Sequence record: DRR723986_585
Length of the DNA stretch: 64,000 nt
Strand: one strand, 5' to 3'
This document shows positions 10,311-16,829 of this stretch, one piece after another. How positions within the stretch are numbered: position 1 is the stretch's first letter; each line of letters opens with the position of its first letter. The notes under the pieces are model-generated. The model ran no database searches. It was not told the DNA's origin and saw only the letters and a list, made by a program, of their open reading frames with translations. The position numbers and the translations under genes are program-made.

Positions 10311-12500
10311 ATGTCTAAATCTAGAACAAAAGCATTTGATGAAGTGTTGACAAGAGAGCCTCAACATATGGAAACACCAGAAAGGAGAGTTTCAGAATAT
10401 TTTGGTGAAAACACTTTTCATTTAGATAAAATGAGAGAGTGTCTAACTGATGAGGCCTACAAAATAGTGAAGTCAGCTGTTCAGAACGGAACTGCGGTAG
10501 ACAGAACTCATGCAGATCAAATTGCTACGGCAATGAAAGATTGGGCTATTTCAAAAGGTGCAACTCATTATACACACTGGTTCCAACCTTTAACAGGCGC
10601 TACTGCTGAAAAGCATGATGGTTTCTTTAAGCCAATCGGACCGGGAAAGGCAATTGAAAGGTTTGAAGGTGATTTGTTAGTGCAACAAGAGCCAGATGCA
10701 TCATCTTTTCCTAACGGTGGGATTAGAAATACATTTGAAGCAAGAGGTTATACTGCCTGGGATCCAACATCTCCAGCATTCGTTATCGGTAAGACTTTAT
10801 GTATTCCGACTGTTTTTATTGCTTACACAGGAGAGGCGCTCGATTATAAAATGCCATTGTTGAAAGCCTTAGATAGAGTAGAGTCTGTGGCGAAAGAGGT
10901 GTGTCAATATTTTGACAAGAACGTTTCTAAAGTTGGAGCGACCTTAGGTTGGGAGCAAGAGTATTTCTTAGTGGACACTGCTTTATATAATGCGCGTCCA
11001 GATTTAGTAATGACAGGTAGAGCATTGTTTGGTCATTCTCCAGCAAAAGGTCAGCAGTTAGACGATCATTATTTCGGATCTATTCCTGAAAGAGCTACAG
11101 CTTTTATGAGAGAGTTTGAATACGAATCTCATTTGTTAGGAATACCAGTTACGACAAGACATAACGAGGTTGCGCCGAATCAATTCGAGTGTGCCCCAAT
11201 GTTTGAAGAAGTGAATATCGCGAACGATCACAACTTATTGTTGATGGATTTGATGGAGAAAGTTGCTCGTAAACACAATTTTAGAGTGTTATTACACGAA
11301 AAACCTTTTGCAGGAATCAATGGTTCAGGAAAACACAATAACTGGTCTTTGGCTACCAATACAGGTGTTAACTTATTGCAACCAGGTAAAAATCCGAAAT
11401 CGAATATGCAGTTCTTGACTTTCTTCGTAAATACGATTAAAGCTATTCATGATAATGCAGATTTGTTGAGGGCATCAATCGCTTCTGCTTCTAACGATCA
11501 TAGGTTAGGTGCAAACGAGGCGCCACCGGCTATTATTTCAGTATTTATTGGTTCGCAATTATCTAAAATGCTAGATGATTTAGAAAAGAGCATTAAAGCT
11601 GGGAAAATGACTCCTGAAGCAAAAACTGAATTGAAATTGAGTATCGGAAAAATCCCTCAACTATTATTAGATAATACAGATAGAAATAGAACTTCTCCAT
11701 TCGCATTTACTGGAAATAAGTTTGAGTTCAGAGCAGTAGGGTCTACGGCAAACTGTGCGCATGCAATGACTGTATTAAATACAATTGTAGCAAATCAGTT
11801 GCAAGAATTTAAATCAAATGTAGATGCTCAAATCGCGCAAGGTGAAAAGAAAGATGAAGCGATTCTTAGAGAATTACAAGTGTTGATAAAAGAATCCAAG
11901 AAAATCCGTTTTGAAGGAAATGGTTATGGAGATGAGTGGGTAAAAGAAGCGAAGAAAAGAGGATTGTCTAATTTAAAGGATACCCCACGTGCCCTTGACG
12001 TATGGAGTAAAAAAGAGACGAAAGCATTGTTCCAAAAATTGGATATTCTTTCAGATGTTGAGTTGGAGGCGAGACATGAAATTGAGTTGGAAAATTATAT
12101 TCTTAAGATTCAAATTGAATCACGTGTAATGGGCGATTTAGCTAAAAACCATTTAATGCCAGCTGCACTTGAATACCAAAACGTTTTAATTAGAAATGTT
12201 GAAGGTTTAATGAATGTTTTAGGAGCAAAAGAAGGTAAAGAGGCGGCAAGAACTCAAATCAATTTCATCAAATCAATCTCTAAGCATGTTAATGCTATGA
12301 ATGATAAAGTAAATTTGATGATTGAAGAGCGCAAGAAAGCAAACGTTATGGAGGATTCCAGAAAGAAAGCTTATGCGTATTGTGATAATATCAAATCTAT
12401 GTTTGATGACATCAGGTATCATGCAGATAAATTAGAAATTATGGTAGATGACGAAATGTGGCCATTACCAAAATTAAGAGAGCTTTTATTTACGAAGTAA
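10311..12500 (+). CDS. glnA: glutamine synthetase type III
   Basis: 729 aa; THYTHWFQPLT, EPDASSFPNGG, HNEVAP, NGSGKHNNW and DRNRTSPFAFTGNKFEFR motifs. Confidence 0.97.
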   Translation: MSKSRTKAFDEVLTREPQHMETPERRVSEYFGENTFHLDKMRECLTDEAYKIVKSAVQNGTAVDRTHADQIATAMKDWAISKGATHYTHWFQPLTGATAEKHDGFFKPIGPGKAIERFEGDLLVQQEPDASSFPNGGIRNTFEARGYTAWDPTSPAFVIGKTLCIPTVFIAYTGEALDYKMPLLKALDRVESVAKEVCQYFDKNVSKVGATLGWEQEYFLVDTALYNARPDLVMTGRALFGHSPAKGQQLDDHYFGSIPERATAFMREFEYESHLLGIPVTTRHNEVAPNQFECAPMFEEVNIANDHNLLLMDLMEKVARKHNFRVLLHEKPFAGINGSGKHNNWSLATNTGVNLLQPGKNPKSNMQFLTFFVNTIKAIHDNADLLRASIASASNDHRLGANEAPPAIISVFIGSQLSKMLDDLEKSIKAGKMTPEAKTELKLSIGKIPQLLLDNTDRNRTSPFAFTGNKFEFRAVGSTANCAHAMTVLNTIVANQLQEFKSNVDAQIAQGEKKDEAILRELQVLIKESKKIRFEGNGYGDEWVKEAKKRGLSNLKDTPRALDVWSKKETKALFQKLDILSDVELEARHEIELENYILKIQIESRVMGDLAKNHLMPAALEYQNVLIRNVEGLMNVLGAKEGKEAARTQINFIKSISKHVNAMNDKVNLMIEERKKANVMEDSRKKAYAYCDNIKSMFDDIRYHADKLEIMVDDEMWPLPKLRELLFTK

Positions 12501-12520
12501 AATAGATTTTACTAAAACTT

Positions 12521-12555
12521 AATCCGTCTCGGTTCAGCCGTGACGGATTTTTTTT
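12521..12555 (+). terminator. intrinsic terminator after glnA
   Basis: AATCCGTCTCGGT-TCA-GCCGTGACGGATT followed by a T-run. Confidence 0.85.
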
Positions 12556-12607
12556 GTTCTGAAACTACCGTTATTATTGGTTTTTTAAAATTTGTTTCAT
12601 TTTTTTC

Positions 12608-12639
12608 TTGGAGATTAATTTTTTTTCACCTTACATTTG
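12608..12639 (+). promoter_or_regulatory. Bacteroidota promoter of the met operon
   Basis: TTG (-33, 12608-12610) and TACATTTG (-7, 12632-12639). Confidence 0.65.
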
Positions 12640-12676
12640 CAATGTCGATTACGGTTCTCGTGAACATGTGATTCGA

Positions 12677-12780
12677 TTTATAAAGAAGAGGTAAGAGACA
12701 GGCTCTATGACCCTCTGGCAACCTTAAGAAGGACTTAAACGGTGCCAATTCCTGTCCCGGTTTTATCGGGAAAATATAAA
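12677..12780 (+). ncRNA. SAM-I (S-box) riboswitch aptamer
   Basis: P1 TTTATA/TATAAA; P2 GAGG..CCTC with inner AGAG/CTCT; loop ACAGG complementary to CCTGT (pseudoknot); P3 GGCAACC...GGTGCC; P4 TCCCGG/TCGGGA; located upstream of Met biosynthesis genes. Confidence 0.9.
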
Positions 12781-12791
12781 AGAATTGCAAA

Positions 12792-12890
12792 ATGAAGACA
12801 AATTCTAAAATTAAACCAGTTGTAAGTAAAAACCTATCAGGTTTAAACCATTTTTCTTGTTGGCATTTGATGTCTAACTGTTGCTGTTAA
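12792..12890 (+). CDS. putative Cys/Met-rich leader peptide MKTNSKIKPVVSKNLSGLNHFSCWHLMSNCCC (32 aa)
   Basis: ATG in an A-rich context 11 nt after the aptamer; four Cys and one Met codon in the last 10 codons, ending TGT TGC TGT TAA. Confidence 0.6.
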   Translation: MKTNSKIKPVVSKNLSGLNHFSCWHLMSNCCC

Positions 12891-12964
12891 TCCCTTTTTT
12901 CAGCTTTCGTTAATTCGTCCTTAAAATTCTTAAGGCCTTATCAATCAATTTAAAATCAAGAAAA

Positions 12965-13990
12965 ATGAACAATTATTTTTTATATCATAATCAATTTAAT
13001 TTAGAATCCGGTCAATTGCTAGACGGATTCAAAATCGCTTATACAATTGCTGGAAATCCTTTTGCGAAAAAGACCATTTGGGTTTGTCATGCTTTGTCCG
13101 GAGACGCTAATCCACTAGAGTGGTGGGCAGGCTTGTTTTCTGATTCTAGTCTTTTCGACTTATCTGAATACAAGGTGGTTTGTGCAAATACGCTGGGTTC
13201 TTGCTATGGATCAACAGGGCCGGCAGATTTGGATGAGCCTTTGACTTTTCCCGTTTTAAGTATTCGAGATATGGTTCGAGCACATCAGTTGTTGGCCGAA
13301 TACCTGAATGTAGGTTCTGTGGAATTGTTGATCGGTCCATCCCAAGGTGGCCAACAAGCATTAGAATGGTCAATTCAAGATCCAGATTTTGCCAAACAAT
13401 TGATTTTAGTGGCGACAAATGCGGTGCATTCGCCTTATGCTATTGCCTTTAACGAATCACAAAGAATGGCTCTTCGCGCAGATTTGTCCTTTGGTTTAAA
13501 AACGGGTGGTAGAGAAGGTTTGAGGGCGGCTAGAGCCATAGCTATGCTTTCATACAGATCTTATCAAGATTTTTATTTGAAACAAAAAGATGAGGAGCGG
13601 TCTGCTCAAAATCACAGAGCTTCTTCTTATGTAGCGTATCAGGGAGAGAAATTTGCCGATCGTTTTAATCCGCATGCCTACTATTATCTTTCAAAAGCAA
13701 TGGATAGTCAAGATGTTTCGAGAGGTCGCGGGTCTTTGGAAGATGTTTTATCAAGTGTAAAATCTAAAACGCTTGTGATCGGAGTTGATTCTGATGCATT
13801 ATTTCCGATTCAAGAGCAAGAATTTTTAGCAAATCATATTCCGAATGCTTGTCTAGGTGTGATTCGGTCTGCATACGGACATGACGCTTTCTTAATAGAA
13901 TACGAACAACTGAATGATTTGATTAAGGATTTTTTATACAATGAATTTAAAAACAATAAACCGACAACTTTTAAAACTAAAACGAATTAA
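12965..13990 (+). CDS. metX: homoserine O-acyltransferase (MetX family)
   Basis: VCHALSG, GSCYGSTGP, nucleophile elbow GPSQGG, D and YGHDAFL motifs. Confidence 0.92.
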   Translation: MNNYFLYHNQFNLESGQLLDGFKIAYTIAGNPFAKKTIWVCHALSGDANPLEWWAGLFSDSSLFDLSEYKVVCANTLGSCYGSTGPADLDEPLTFPVLSIRDMVRAHQLLAEYLNVGSVELLIGPSQGGQQALEWSIQDPDFAKQLILVATNAVHSPYAIAFNESQRMALRADLSFGLKTGGREGLRAARAIAMLSYRSYQDFYLKQKDEERSAQNHRASSYVAYQGEKFADRFNPHAYYYLSKAMDSQDVSRGRGSLEDVLSSVKSKTLVIGVDSDALFPIQEQEFLANHIPNACLGVIRSAYGHDAFLIEYEQLNDLIKDFLYNEFKNNKPTTFKTKTN

Positions 13991-13992
13991 TA

Positions 13993-15225
13993 ATGAGTAA
14001 TAAATTAAAGATAGGTCTATTTGGATTTGGCTGTGTAGGGTCAGGTCTTTACGAGGTACTGAATCAAAGTAATCTACTAAATGCATCTATTGAAAAAATA
14101 GTAGTTAAGGATCGCGATAAGCACAGAAGTTTAGCAAAAGATAGGTTTTCATTTGAAAAAGAGACGGTCTTAGATGATTCGGCTATTAACCTTGTTGTAG
14201 AATTAATTGATGATGCTGAAGCTGCCTTCGAAATTGTTACAGAGGCCTTTAGAAGAGGGAAGAATGTGGTGTCTGCGAATAAAAAACTAATTGCTGAACA
14301 TTTAGATGTATTACTTGCATTAAGCGAAGAATGTGGTGTTTCGTTTTTATATGAGGCGGCTGTTTGTGGGTCGATTCCTGTAATTCGAAATTTAGAAGAG
14401 TATTACAATAACGATAGTCTTGCTTCTATCAAAGGTATCTGCAACGGAACCAGTAATTATGTCTTAACGCGATTGAATAATGAGCTAAAATCATTTGATG
14501 AAGTGTTGGCAGATGCGCAAGCAATTGGTTTTGCTGAATCTGATCCAACTTTAGACATTGATGGCTTTGACAGTAAATATAAGTTGCAAATTCTTTTACT
14601 TCATACTTTTGGCTTGAAGACTGTTCCTCAAAACGTATTAAATATCGGGGTTCGTCACGTCAAGGCTGAGGATATTCTCTTCGCAAAAGAGAAGGGATTG
14701 CGACTGAAGTTGATTTCTTATGCTAAAAAAGTAGAGGATGAAATTGTAGCATTTGCTGCTCCAATGTTTGTGAAGGATGATAGTTTCGCATTTGAAGTCA
14801 ACAATGAATTCAATGCTGTTGAAATTGAAGGTCTTTTTGCGGATAAACAAGTATTTGTTGGTAAAGGGGCGGGTAGTTTTCCTACTGCAAGCGCAGTGTT
14901 AAGTGATGTTTCGGCACTTCAATACAGCTACAAATATGAATATCGCAAATTAGGCTCTAATTCTTCAAGTTTAGCAGATGGCTTTGTGTTTAAGGTGTTT
15001 GTTTCTTCAAAAAATGCAGAGTCTCTGTCGTTAATCAATTTTATCCAAGTGGAAGAGGAGTTTAGTTCTTCAAATTACTCGTATAAAGTGGGTCTGATAA
15101 AAAGTTCTTCAATTAATCATGAGTTATATCGTAATCAACCAGACTTGTTTATTGCTGCTTTTGAAGATGCTGAAATTGAATTGATTAAAAAAGAAAAACA
15201 GCAAGTTGAATCTTTAGAAGTTTAG
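13993..15225 (+). CDS. hom: homoserine dehydrogenase
   Basis: GFGCVGSG, VVSANK, YEAAVCGSIP, NGTSNY, GFAESDP and GKGAG motifs. Confidence 0.93.
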   Translation: MSNKLKIGLFGFGCVGSGLYEVLNQSNLLNASIEKIVVKDRDKHRSLAKDRFSFEKETVLDDSAINLVVELIDDAEAAFEIVTEAFRRGKNVVSANKKLIAEHLDVLLALSEECGVSFLYEAAVCGSIPVIRNLEEYYNNDSLASIKGICNGTSNYVLTRLNNELKSFDEVLADAQAIGFAESDPTLDIDGFDSKYKLQILLLHTFGLKTVPQNVLNIGVRHVKAEDILFAKEKGLRLKLISYAKKVEDEIVAFAAPMFVKDDSFAFEVNNEFNAVEIEGLFADKQVFVGKGAGSFPTASAVLSDVSALQYSYKYEYRKLGSNSSSLADGFVFKVFVSSKNAESLSLINFIQVEEEFSSSNYSYKVGLIKSSSINHELYRNQPDLFIAAFEDAEIELIKKEKQQVESLEV

Positions 15226-15228
15226 GTT

Positions 15229-15639
15229 ATGGAATTGTTATTAAGAAGATTGAGTGGTGAATATGGATTTGAAGTTGCTAATCAAACTGGCCAACAGATA
15301 CGTTTTGATGCTGCAGAAGAAATAGGAGGGCTGGGCTTTGGAGTACGCCCTATGGAGGCCTTGGCTTCTAGTTTGGCGGCATGTGCGTCCATTGATGTTT
15401 TGCTCATTTTGAAAAAGCAGAAAGTGATTCCTGAAAATTTTGAGGTTAAAATTGATGCGATTAGAAAAGAGGAGATACCAAGTGTTTTTAAATCAATTCA
15501 TCTAGATTTTTTAGTTCAGACTAATGCCTCTTTGGAGCGGATTCAAAAAGCAGTGAATTTAAGTCTAGATAAGTATTGTTCCGTTGCTAAAATACTTAAT
15601 CCAACTTGCGATATCACTTCGAGTATAACTTTATTTTAA
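15229..15639 (+). CDS. OsmC/YhfA-family protein
   Basis: GVRPME..LAAC..ID and KYCSV two-Cys pattern. Confidence 0.88.
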   Translation: MELLLRRLSGEYGFEVANQTGQQIRFDAAEEIGGLGFGVRPMEALASSLAACASIDVLLILKKQKVIPENFEVKIDAIRKEEIPSVFKSIHLDFLVQTNASLERIQKAVNLSLDKYCSVAKILNPTCDITSSITLF

Positions 15640-15671
15640 GTTGTTTAAGCTAATATAAATCAATGATTTAA

Positions 15672-16829
15672 ATGAAAAAAGAAACACGATTAATTAGAGA
15701 TCAAATTGAAAGAAGTCAGTTCAAAGAGCATGCAGTTCCGTTGTACATGACTTCGAGTTATACTTTTGATTCTGCCGAACAAATGGCGGCGACATTTAAT
15801 GATGAAGAAGAGGGTTATATCTATAGCCGTTATTCAAATCCAAATGTCACGGAGTTTGGAGATAAGGTTGCGTATCTTGAGGGAGCGGAGGCTTCTTGGG
15901 TAACCAGTTCTGGGATGTCTGCCATCTTCTCAACTTTTGGCGCATTACTTAAATCAGGAGATCGTATTTTATCAGCACGTTCTGTTTTTGGTTCGACTCA
16001 CCGTTTATTCACTGAGATGTTACCAAAATGGGGGGTAGAAACGGATTATGTTTCTTTTGATGATGTTGATTCATGGAAGGACTCCGTTACAAGTCAAACT
16101 AAAGTGTTGTACTTGGAAACGCCTACTAATCCAGGTGTAGACATCATTGATTTGGTAAAAGCAAGCGAATTGGCAAAGGAATTTGGTTTAATTTTTATTG
16201 TAGATAATTGTTTTGCTACACCCGTAAATCAACAACCAATAAAATTTGGAGCTGATCTAGTTATCCATTCAGCCACAAAGTATTTTGATGGTCAAGGAAG
16301 GACTATGGGTGGAGTGATTTTAGGTACTGAGCAATTGATTGCAGAAATCCAAGCTTTTGCAAGACATACGGGGCCGTCAATTTCTCCTTTCAACGCATGG
16401 ATTTTATCAAAGTCTTTAGAGACATTGACTTTAAGAGTTGAGCGGCACAACCAGAATGCGCTCGAATTGGCGAAAAGGCTAGAGGCTGAGGAATCCGTTT
16501 CAATTGTGAAGTATCCGTTCCTAGAGTCTCATCCTCAGTATGAAATTGCCAAAAAGCAAATGACAGGTGGCGGAGGATTGGTGACTTTTGAAATAAAAGG
16601 AGGCGTTGAGAAAGGTAGAGAATTCCTGAATCGTTTACAGATGCTCAGTTTGACCGCGAATTTGGGTGATTCTAGATCCATTGCTACACATCCTGCGTCA
16701 ACAACCCATTCAAAGTTAACTGAAAAGGATAGGCTAGCGGTAGGCATAACACCTGGATTAATACGAATCTCTGCCGGTTTGGAGCATATTGATGATATCT
16801 GGGCGGATATACAACAGGCTTTGAGTTAG
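15672..16829 (+). CDS. metZ: O-acyl-homoserine sulfhydrylase (MetZ-like, Cys/Met metabolism PLP enzyme)
   Basis: [32 protein letters not shown] and HPASTTH motifs. Confidence 0.85.

Follow-up and report, generated by a model that had tools for sequence, protein, structure and literature searches.

How does a SAM-I riboswitch control the genes behind it when no intrinsic terminator stands between them? The question is raised by a leader in sequence record DRR723986_585, of which a stretch of 64,000 nucleotides (nt) was analysed (the window; all coordinates are positions within this whole stretch, and the parts of the leader and its operon lie on the plus strand). Here an S-adenosylmethionine (SAM) aptamer is followed by an unannotated upstream open reading frame (uORF) ending in Cys and Met codons, and then by metX, the first gene of a direct-sulfhydrylation operon. 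The original prediction, made from the sequence alone, had proposed a sensor with two inputs, SAM on the one hand and the supply of Cys and Met on the other. Comparative and structural evidence now supports this proposal, and we consider it probable, on comparative and thermodynamic grounds, that the locus carries a composite two-input leader for an operon that makes homocysteine by direct sulfhydrylation.

The aptamer occupies positions 12675–12782 and matches the SAM-I (S-box) family RF00162 over the entire model (1–108 of 108) with 87.4 bits, against a gathering threshold of 44.4 (E 2.3e-19). It is the sole Rfam match above threshold in the window, and a permissive Rfam scan of 12500–13000 gave nothing credible besides it. 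Its P1 helix pairs TTTATA (12677–12682) with TATAAA (12775–12780). The uORF, with 32 codons encoding MKTNSKIKPVVSKNLSGLNHFSCWHLMSNCCC, extends from 12792 to 12890 (stop codon 12888–12890); its ATG lies 11 nt past the end of P1 at 12780, 9 nt past the end of the Rfam match and about 145 nt 3′ of the predicted promoter. Its conceptual translation confirms that the last 10 codons (CWHLMSNCCC) hold every one of the four Cys and the sole internal Met, namely Cys23 at 12858–12860, Met27 at 12870–12872 and Cys30–32 at 12879–12887. Between the uORF and metX lies a spacer of 74 nt (12891–12964) that is pyrimidine-rich and G-poor, as had been noted, with C 15, G 6, T 29 and A 24. The earlier reader had also seen no strong intrinsic terminator between aptamer and metX, and a terminator consensus scan of 12400–13100 agreed, giving 0 terminator-like sites and thus none before metX. 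A separate scan of 14 leaders from the family set described below likewise found 0 sites. An intrinsic terminator 3′ of the uORF is ruled out for the family leaders, and a few weak candidates occur in class-level leaders.

We then looked at whether relatives keep the uORF. A search with MetX returned one near-identical metagenome-assembled genome and otherwise distant Proteobacteria and Archaea, and was unhelpful for comparing leaders. The family set consisted of 41 relatives of the nearest genome, 24 of which have metX, and 15 of these 24 carry RF00162 upstream of it. The nine other metX loci (L077, L079, L082, L084–L086 and L089–L091) have no RF00162 match within 1500 nt upstream. In 14 of the 15 leaders an ATG 7–14 nt past the aptamer opens a frame of 30–46 codons with a Cys/Met tail; 13 of these uORFs hold at least three Cys within the last 12 codons, and the tail of L083 is weak. 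The tails include ...CCCCCCMHSCCC, ...CCCCSTCMCCC, ...CCCMTCCCMH and ...RMCCCC. The N-terminal sequence drifts freely among these leaders, while position, frame and the Cys/Met tail are kept. The fifteenth leader, L074 (G004, same genus; locus 1342–1497), has no uORF, and its 5′ hairpin, P0 helix (both described below) and aptamer stand 9 nt before the metX ATG. As a separate observation, L080 (G035) has an extra 79-codon frame (MSKFRNRISSIL...) between its Cys/Met uORF and metX.

How much of this could be chance? In the window, 3 of 337 ATG-initiated frames of 20–75 codons hold at least three Cys in their last 12 codons, and the window frame taken alone is not beyond chance. It is the fixed position and the conservation that raise the uORF above it. 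In dinucleotide-shuffled leaders a Cys-tailed uORF within 20 nt of the aptamer appeared in 15 of 9300 cases, and a uORF of any kind in 1008 of 9300. Moreover, five of the family genomes possess second SAM-I aptamers, in five metH leaders and one hom leader, and such a uORF is found in 0 of these 6.

To extend the comparison to the class, we took a census of 151 Bacteroidia genomes, 107 of which had a match above the cut-off. This gave 137 aptamers, sorted by their downstream gene with Pfam; two G001 rows that were already covered and two rows below the cut-off were left out. Under a strict criterion (ATG at most 20 nt from the aptamer end and at least three Cys in the last 12 codons), the uORF is present in 13 of the 17 metY leaders and 1 of the 2 metX leaders. 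It is present in none of the 83 metH leaders, none of the 10 metB-like leaders, 1 of 24 other leaders (before a TonB-receptor gene) and not behind the single aptamer without a downstream gene. Pooled, metY and metX leaders carry it in 14 of 19 cases, against 1 of 118 for the remaining leaders. Among the four metY exceptions, L144 does possess a uORF, its ATG overlapping the end of the aptamer as called; the tail of L154 is weak; and L109 (G072) and L169 (G184) have a GC-rich hairpin with a U run after the aptamer and no uORF. Two platform types, uORF and terminator, alternate before metY within the class. Conservation of the uORF and its Cys cluster in relatives had been put forward as the decisive check; they are kept in the 14 family leaders and, with the census and the family set taken together, their carriers span at least 12 GTDB families.

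A few SAM-I aptamers stand before TonB-dependent receptor genes (L139 of G123, L106 of G190, and L214). L139 and L106 have a terminator behind the aptamer and, farther on, a small frame with Cys and Met codons (e.g. ...RMCMELCCSS), and L214 (G135) has a near uORF ending in ...HGCCCMSSAAACMR. Also in G135, L192 carries MRRAGMGCCCCCWLA 69 nt past the aptamer and before a gene without a Pfam match.

In total, 31 uORFs from the two sets were compared codon by codon. Within the last 12 codons the share of Cys is 39% and that of Met 10%, whereas elsewhere the two stand at 1.2% and 1.6%; at least one Met is present in 25 of the 31 tails. The final Cys lies 0–2 codons before the stop in 27 of 31, and the Cys codons comprise 97 TGT and 56 TGC. 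Lengths range from 30 to 52 codons, and searches of the peptides against Pfam and NCBIfam brought up no family, with E allowed up to 10. What is conserved is a codon class and its position, not the peptide, and only at genes that fix sulfur; judged from the sequences, such a pattern is characteristic of a sensor leader peptide. Ten of the 31 uORFs start with Met-Lys-Thr (ATGAAGACA or similar), which might be due to selection either on the efficiency of initiation or on the pairing between start and P0.

The next question is how the aptamer could act on such a uORF. The linker between the two is too short to hold an expression platform 3′ of the aptamer, and the pairing partner lies on the other side. 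TGTGATTC (12667–12674) pairs with GAATTGCA (12782–12789), and TCGT (12658–12661) with ATGA (12792–12795), which contains the uORF start codon. The helix formed by these two parts, P0, has its 5′ strand at 12658–12674 and its 3′ strand at 12782–12795, and prolongs P1 across a small internal loop, from the 5′ leader to the linker and the uORF start codon. An analysis of P0 with MAFFT and RNAalifold was dropped, as it missed even the AU-only P1. MAFFT put the P0 strands out of register, and we therefore used an alignment-free test and a covariance-model alignment; class-level loci carried 20 nt of 5′ flank. In the alignment-free test, cognate pairs of 5′ flank and linker had a mean energy of −5.87 kcal/mol against −4.14 kcal/mol for non-cognate pairs (permutation p 5e-5, n=32), and the subset of 28 leaders without close kin gave the same p of 5e-5. 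In the covariance-model alignment of 32 leaders, pairing reaches 74% in outer P0, where 4 of 5 pairs show double changes, and 88.6% in inner P0 and P1 combined, where 8 of 11 pairs do; slid controls gave 27–44%.

The 5′ strand of P0 has a second possible partner. A leader hairpin is predicted by RNAfold at 12644–12676, whose 3′ arm is the P0 5′ strand, and it is contained in the minimum free energy (MFE) fold of the window. In the twin locus L068 this hairpin has −10.4 kcal/mol, an energy matched by 11 of 200 shuffles. Of the 15 family leaders, 14 have a predicted hairpin in this position; in 9 of the 15, no more than 10 of 200 shuffles match it, and the stem is of different sequence in L081, L083, L087 and L088. 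The transcript appears to include this region. The element TACATTTG at 12632–12639 fits TAnnTTTG, which we take to be the consensus of the Bacteroidia −7 promoter element, and TAnnTTTG is found 35–44 nt 5′ of the aptamer in 12 of the 15 family loci. From the position of this box, the transcript is predicted to start at about 12644–12648, which places the P0 5′ strand inside it. A −7 element is mentioned in the available part of PMC6847099.

Because the 5′ hairpin can hold the P0 strand instead, the leader can be modelled as a two-state switch, either with the 5′ hairpin formed and the start open, or with P1 and P0 formed and the start buried. On this model SAM probably blocks initiation at the uORF. 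Sequestration of a start coupled to P1, one of the two forms that a SAM-I expression platform takes besides a terminator, would be present, but the start codon is that of the uORF. We infer on structural grounds, from the covariation of P0 and from the arrangement in L074, that the aptamer controls access to the uORF start. Since L074 has the same module directly before the metX ATG, the module can be regarded as a self-sufficient translational switch, and the uORF as an insert between switch and gene. The covarying P0 over the uORF start and the L074 variant lend structural support to the proposal, part of the original prediction, that SAM gates uORF translation. According to the available part of PMC6847099, Bacteroidetes lack Shine-Dalgarno sequences, and structure together with an A at −3 tunes initiation. 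Initiation of this kind fits a platform that just closes the start region.

How, then, would translation of the uORF reach metX? The region 12843–12972 folds into one long irregular hairpin of −24.7 kcal/mol (z −3.67; none of 200 shuffles did as well). At its base, the anti-start arm CATTTTTCTTG (12849–12859, codons His20–Cys23) pairs with CAAGAAAAATG (12957–12967), the metX start-region arm that contains the metX ATG (12965–12967), and the terminal Cys codons lie in inner helices. The duplex between uORF tail and metX start has p ≤0.03 in 6 of 6 genus loci (z −2.3 to −3.3), formed by three different arm sequences. Cognate pairs of uORF tail and start region have a mean of −9.8 kcal/mol against −7.2 kcal/mol for non-cognate ones (p 6e-4, n=14). 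A small spacer hairpin at 12919–12935 was also considered as a strong element and rejected for the window, where it is weak (−3.3 kcal/mol, z −1.0 in L068); relatives carry stronger hairpins of different sequence in its place.

A stalled ribosome was modelled by forcing a 27-nt footprint to be single-stranded. The probability that the metX start is unpaired, otherwise 0.28, reaches 0.49 when Cys23 or Met27 occupies the A site, and a stall at the first Cys in five genus relatives raises it from 0.22–0.32 to 0.54–0.74. A ribosome placed early in the uORF does not raise the opening of the metX start. This positional logic would be that of an attenuator with a translational output, and in this genus the output is likely, judging from these models, the sequestration of the metX start region by the 3′ part of the uORF itself. 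ermC-like translational attenuation offers a likeness for such an output.

Taken together, the following course of events can be proposed. With SAM bound, the uORF start would be buried in P1 and P0 from about position −10 to +4, leaving the uORF untranslated, a step whose structure is supported and whose function is proposed. Initiation by Bacteroidia ribosomes relies on a start region that is open and rich in A. In the SAM-free state, the P0 strand would be held by the 5′ hairpin and the uORF would be translated. The last third of the uORF would join with the spacer in the long irregular hairpin, with codons 20–23 paired to the metX start. If the uORF is free of ribosomes, the metX start would be closed, the bare C-rich spacer may also admit Rho, and the operon would be off. 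A translating ribosome would unwind the hairpin, and one stalled at Cys23 or Met27 for want of Cys-tRNA or Met-tRNA would keep the metX start open. Expression would then need low SAM and be boosted when charged tRNA-Cys or tRNA-Met is scarce. For Bacteroidia as a whole, we give about even chances to the broader proposal that metY and metX stand under an undescribed class of composite leaders, in which a SAM-I aptamer with a 5′ switching hairpin gates a uORF that reads tRNA-Cys and tRNA-Met, with two inputs, acting through translation and/or Rho and without an intrinsic terminator.

Several results weigh against this proposed mechanism. First, in the thermodynamic model, forcing P1 lowers the accessibility of the uORF start merely from 0.47 to 0.37; 20–35% of the outer P0 cells are unpaired, and the alignment is fitted to the model and leans its way. 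Second, a single ribosome stalled at Cys30, Cys32 or the stop leaves the metX start closed (0.28–0.31 against 0.28). The footprint model does not support the idea that the terminal CCC opens the metX start by way of one stalled ribosome; because late stalls do not open the start, this most striking feature of the uORF is unexplained unless ribosomes queue. We conjecture that a queued second ribosome would cover the anti-start arm. Third, start-region pairing was rejected as a class-wide mechanism, being significant in 7 of 31 leaders, and is a feature of the genus; pairing between uORF tail and spacer reaches p ≤0.05 in 11 of 31 leaders. Fourth, the uORF can be dispensed with, as L074 lacks one and the metY leaders L109 and L169 rely on a plain terminator. 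Finally, the relatives compared are kin, and the p values therefore overstate significance.

Among the other explanations, the one that survives best makes attenuation by Rho the main output. When the uORF is untranslated, or the ribosome is quickly released, Rho would load on the C-rich, G-poor spacer and end transcription before metX, a translating or stalled ribosome would prevent this, and start pairing would be secondary. We regard this as possible, although distinctly less probable than the two-input leader with start sequestration; the two overlap and could act together. In each of the 31 uORF leaders, C outnumbers G in the spacer (787 C against 511 G), as in the window spacer with its 15 C and 6 G, compared with 29 of 83 metH leaders (1575 C against 1689 G), but such composition is no more than suggestive of Rho, and the spacer, at 74 nt, is short and has some structure. 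The lack of an intrinsic terminator in the window region and in the family leaders agrees with Rho, rho itself scores above cut-off in 3 of 3 genus genomes, and many class-level leaders without start-region pairing fit this explanation. The covariation between uORF tail and metX start, however, is unneeded under it. A precedent is the mgtA–mgtL leader, and another, in the available part of PMC12810186, is the Mbox-uORF leader of M. tuberculosis. A Rho component that acts when the uORF is untranslated is plausible from sequence, and in lineages that lack start-region pairing it could be the chief output.

An improbable alternative is that the uORF is a relay only. SAM-controlled translation would be coupled to metX by unwinding of the helix or by re-initiation, and the Cys codons (UGU/UGC) would serve as a pairing strand for start regions of the AACAA type, not as tRNA sensors. 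Indeed, the UUGUU of Cys codons complements AACAA motifs just 5′ of many metX and metY starts, and in the ppe2 leader of M. tuberculosis a riboswitch-controlled uORF is required for downstream translation, as given in the available part of PMC11260477. But the Cys runs are kept even in leaders without start-region pairing; Met is co-enriched in the tails, as the counts above show, and pairing offers no explanation for it; the uORF is confined to genes fixing sulfur into homocysteine (the 14 of 19 against 1 of 118); and Cys-codon uORFs elsewhere are Cys sensors, according to the available parts of bioRxiv 10.1101/834739 and PMC8632094. Least of all do we expect a functional Cys-rich micropeptide, for example a metal- or sulfur-binding one co-expressed with the operon, or a chance frame, for the C-terminal Cys cluster is conserved only as codon class and position while the remaining peptide and the length vary and no family is matched, and chance, despite the Cys-tailed frames it yields in the window, is excluded by the shuffles (15 of 9300) set against the observed 14 of 15 and 14 of 19.

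The two-input leader may also be compared with known systems. The Salmonella mgtA leader combines a Mg2+ riboswitch with the proline-codon uORF mgtL and has a Rho-dependent output. Like it, the present leader joins a ligand-sensing RNA and an amino-acid-sensing short frame without an intrinsic terminator; unlike it, the signals would be SAM and Cys/Met in place of Mg2+ and Pro, and the uORF, which in mgtA lies inside the sensing RNA, follows the aptamer and has its start gated. Canonical SAM-I riboswitches (RF00162) share with the locus a full, high-scoring aptamer before methionine-pathway genes, but here the terminator/antiterminator platform is missing and P1 is extended onto the uORF start codon. 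In classical attenuators (trpL, hisL and uORFC-8-2), as here, a short frame has clustered cognate codons and the position of the stalled ribosome picks the RNA fold; those systems finish with an intrinsic terminator hairpin and its U run, whereas none is present here and the output looks translational and/or Rho-dependent. uORFC-8-2 is a Cys-codon uORF before cysS in Rhodobacterales, as described in the available part of PMC8632094.

Also comparable are two M. tuberculosis leaders: that of ppe2, in which a B12 switch is followed by a uORF whose translation is essential (available part of PMC11260477), and that of pe20, in which an Mbox is combined with the uORF rv1805A and Rho (available part of PMC12810186). 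In those leaders, so far as these sources extend, the aptamer acts on the start of a small uORF and not on the main gene, and uORF translation sets downstream expression, in pe20 with Rho; the same arrangement is suggested here by structure. The differences are that the present aptamer is SAM-I in another phylum, that its uORF carries codons of the pathway end products and would thereby contribute a second metabolic signal, that the switching hairpin is proposed to lie 5′ of the aptamer, and that no Shine-Dalgarno sequence is present. Canestrari et al. proposed for polycysteine small frames of mycobacteria that a ribosome waiting for Cys-tRNA prevents a duplex between the small frame and its 3′ region (available part of bioRxiv 10.1101/834739). 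The two share a Cys tract in a small uORF that makes a stable fold with its 3′ region (in the present leader, the fold with z −3.67 given above), but the mycobacterial frames are leaderless and their description there mentions no riboswitch, whereas the present uORF is leadered, stands behind SAM-I and has Met codons mixed in. A SAM-II switch that acts on translation at a distance is known from Sinorhizobium, in the available part of its description. We found no paper on SAM-I combined with a Cys/Met leader peptide, nor on a platform 5′ of the aptamer in Bacteroidia, in a literature search whose coverage excluded supplements and subscription journals. Both components have precedents, the uORF under riboswitch control as well as the Cys leader peptide; their combination was not found described. 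The leader belongs neither with the classical attenuators of the terminator type nor with the leaderless polycysteine frames; by analogy, it would work as a uORF gated by a riboswitch and joined to a Cys/Met attenuator.

The operon behind the leader has four genes (12965–16829), called from open reading frames and NCBIfam. First comes a MetX-like homoserine O-acyltransferase (12965–13990), with 281.5 bits to NCBIfam MetX models, under their equivalog cut-offs. It is followed by a homoserine dehydrogenase (13993–15225; NCBIfam Hom subfamily, 311.9 against a cut-off of 205), an OsmC-family protein (15229–15639; NCBIfam OsmC, 66.1, under the cut-off) and a pyridoxal phosphate (PLP) enzyme resembling O-succinyl/acetyl-homoserine sulfhydrylase (15672–16829; NCBIfam O-succinylhomoserine sulfhydrylase, 504.8 against a cut-off of 522). 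Upstream of the leader, just past a 729-codon frame (10311–12500) whose protein matched no NCBIfam model at E 1e-10, there is a hairpin ATCCGTC...GACGGAT followed by T8 (12521–12556). The terminator scan did not call it, probably owing to its 13-nt loop. It looks like the terminator of the 729-codon frame, which would make the metX leader a separate transcription unit. An RNA sequence search returned two runs with 7% of the sampled words, each represented by one contig of a relative (12599–12810 and 12654–12810); these two contigs are uninformative on transcript ends, strand or translation.

The proposed mechanism explains the long, terminator-free leaders of many Bacteroidia SAM-I riboswitches before metY and metX, and it flags a conserved class of unannotated small frames. 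If true, it shows a riboswitch for an end-product cofactor and a leader peptide reading charged tRNA wired in series on one mRNA. The restriction of this design to the sulfur-fixing step suggests that the step feeds both Met/SAM and Cys in these organisms. It would also show, if the structural model holds, how bacteria without Shine-Dalgarno sequences build the expression platforms of their riboswitches.

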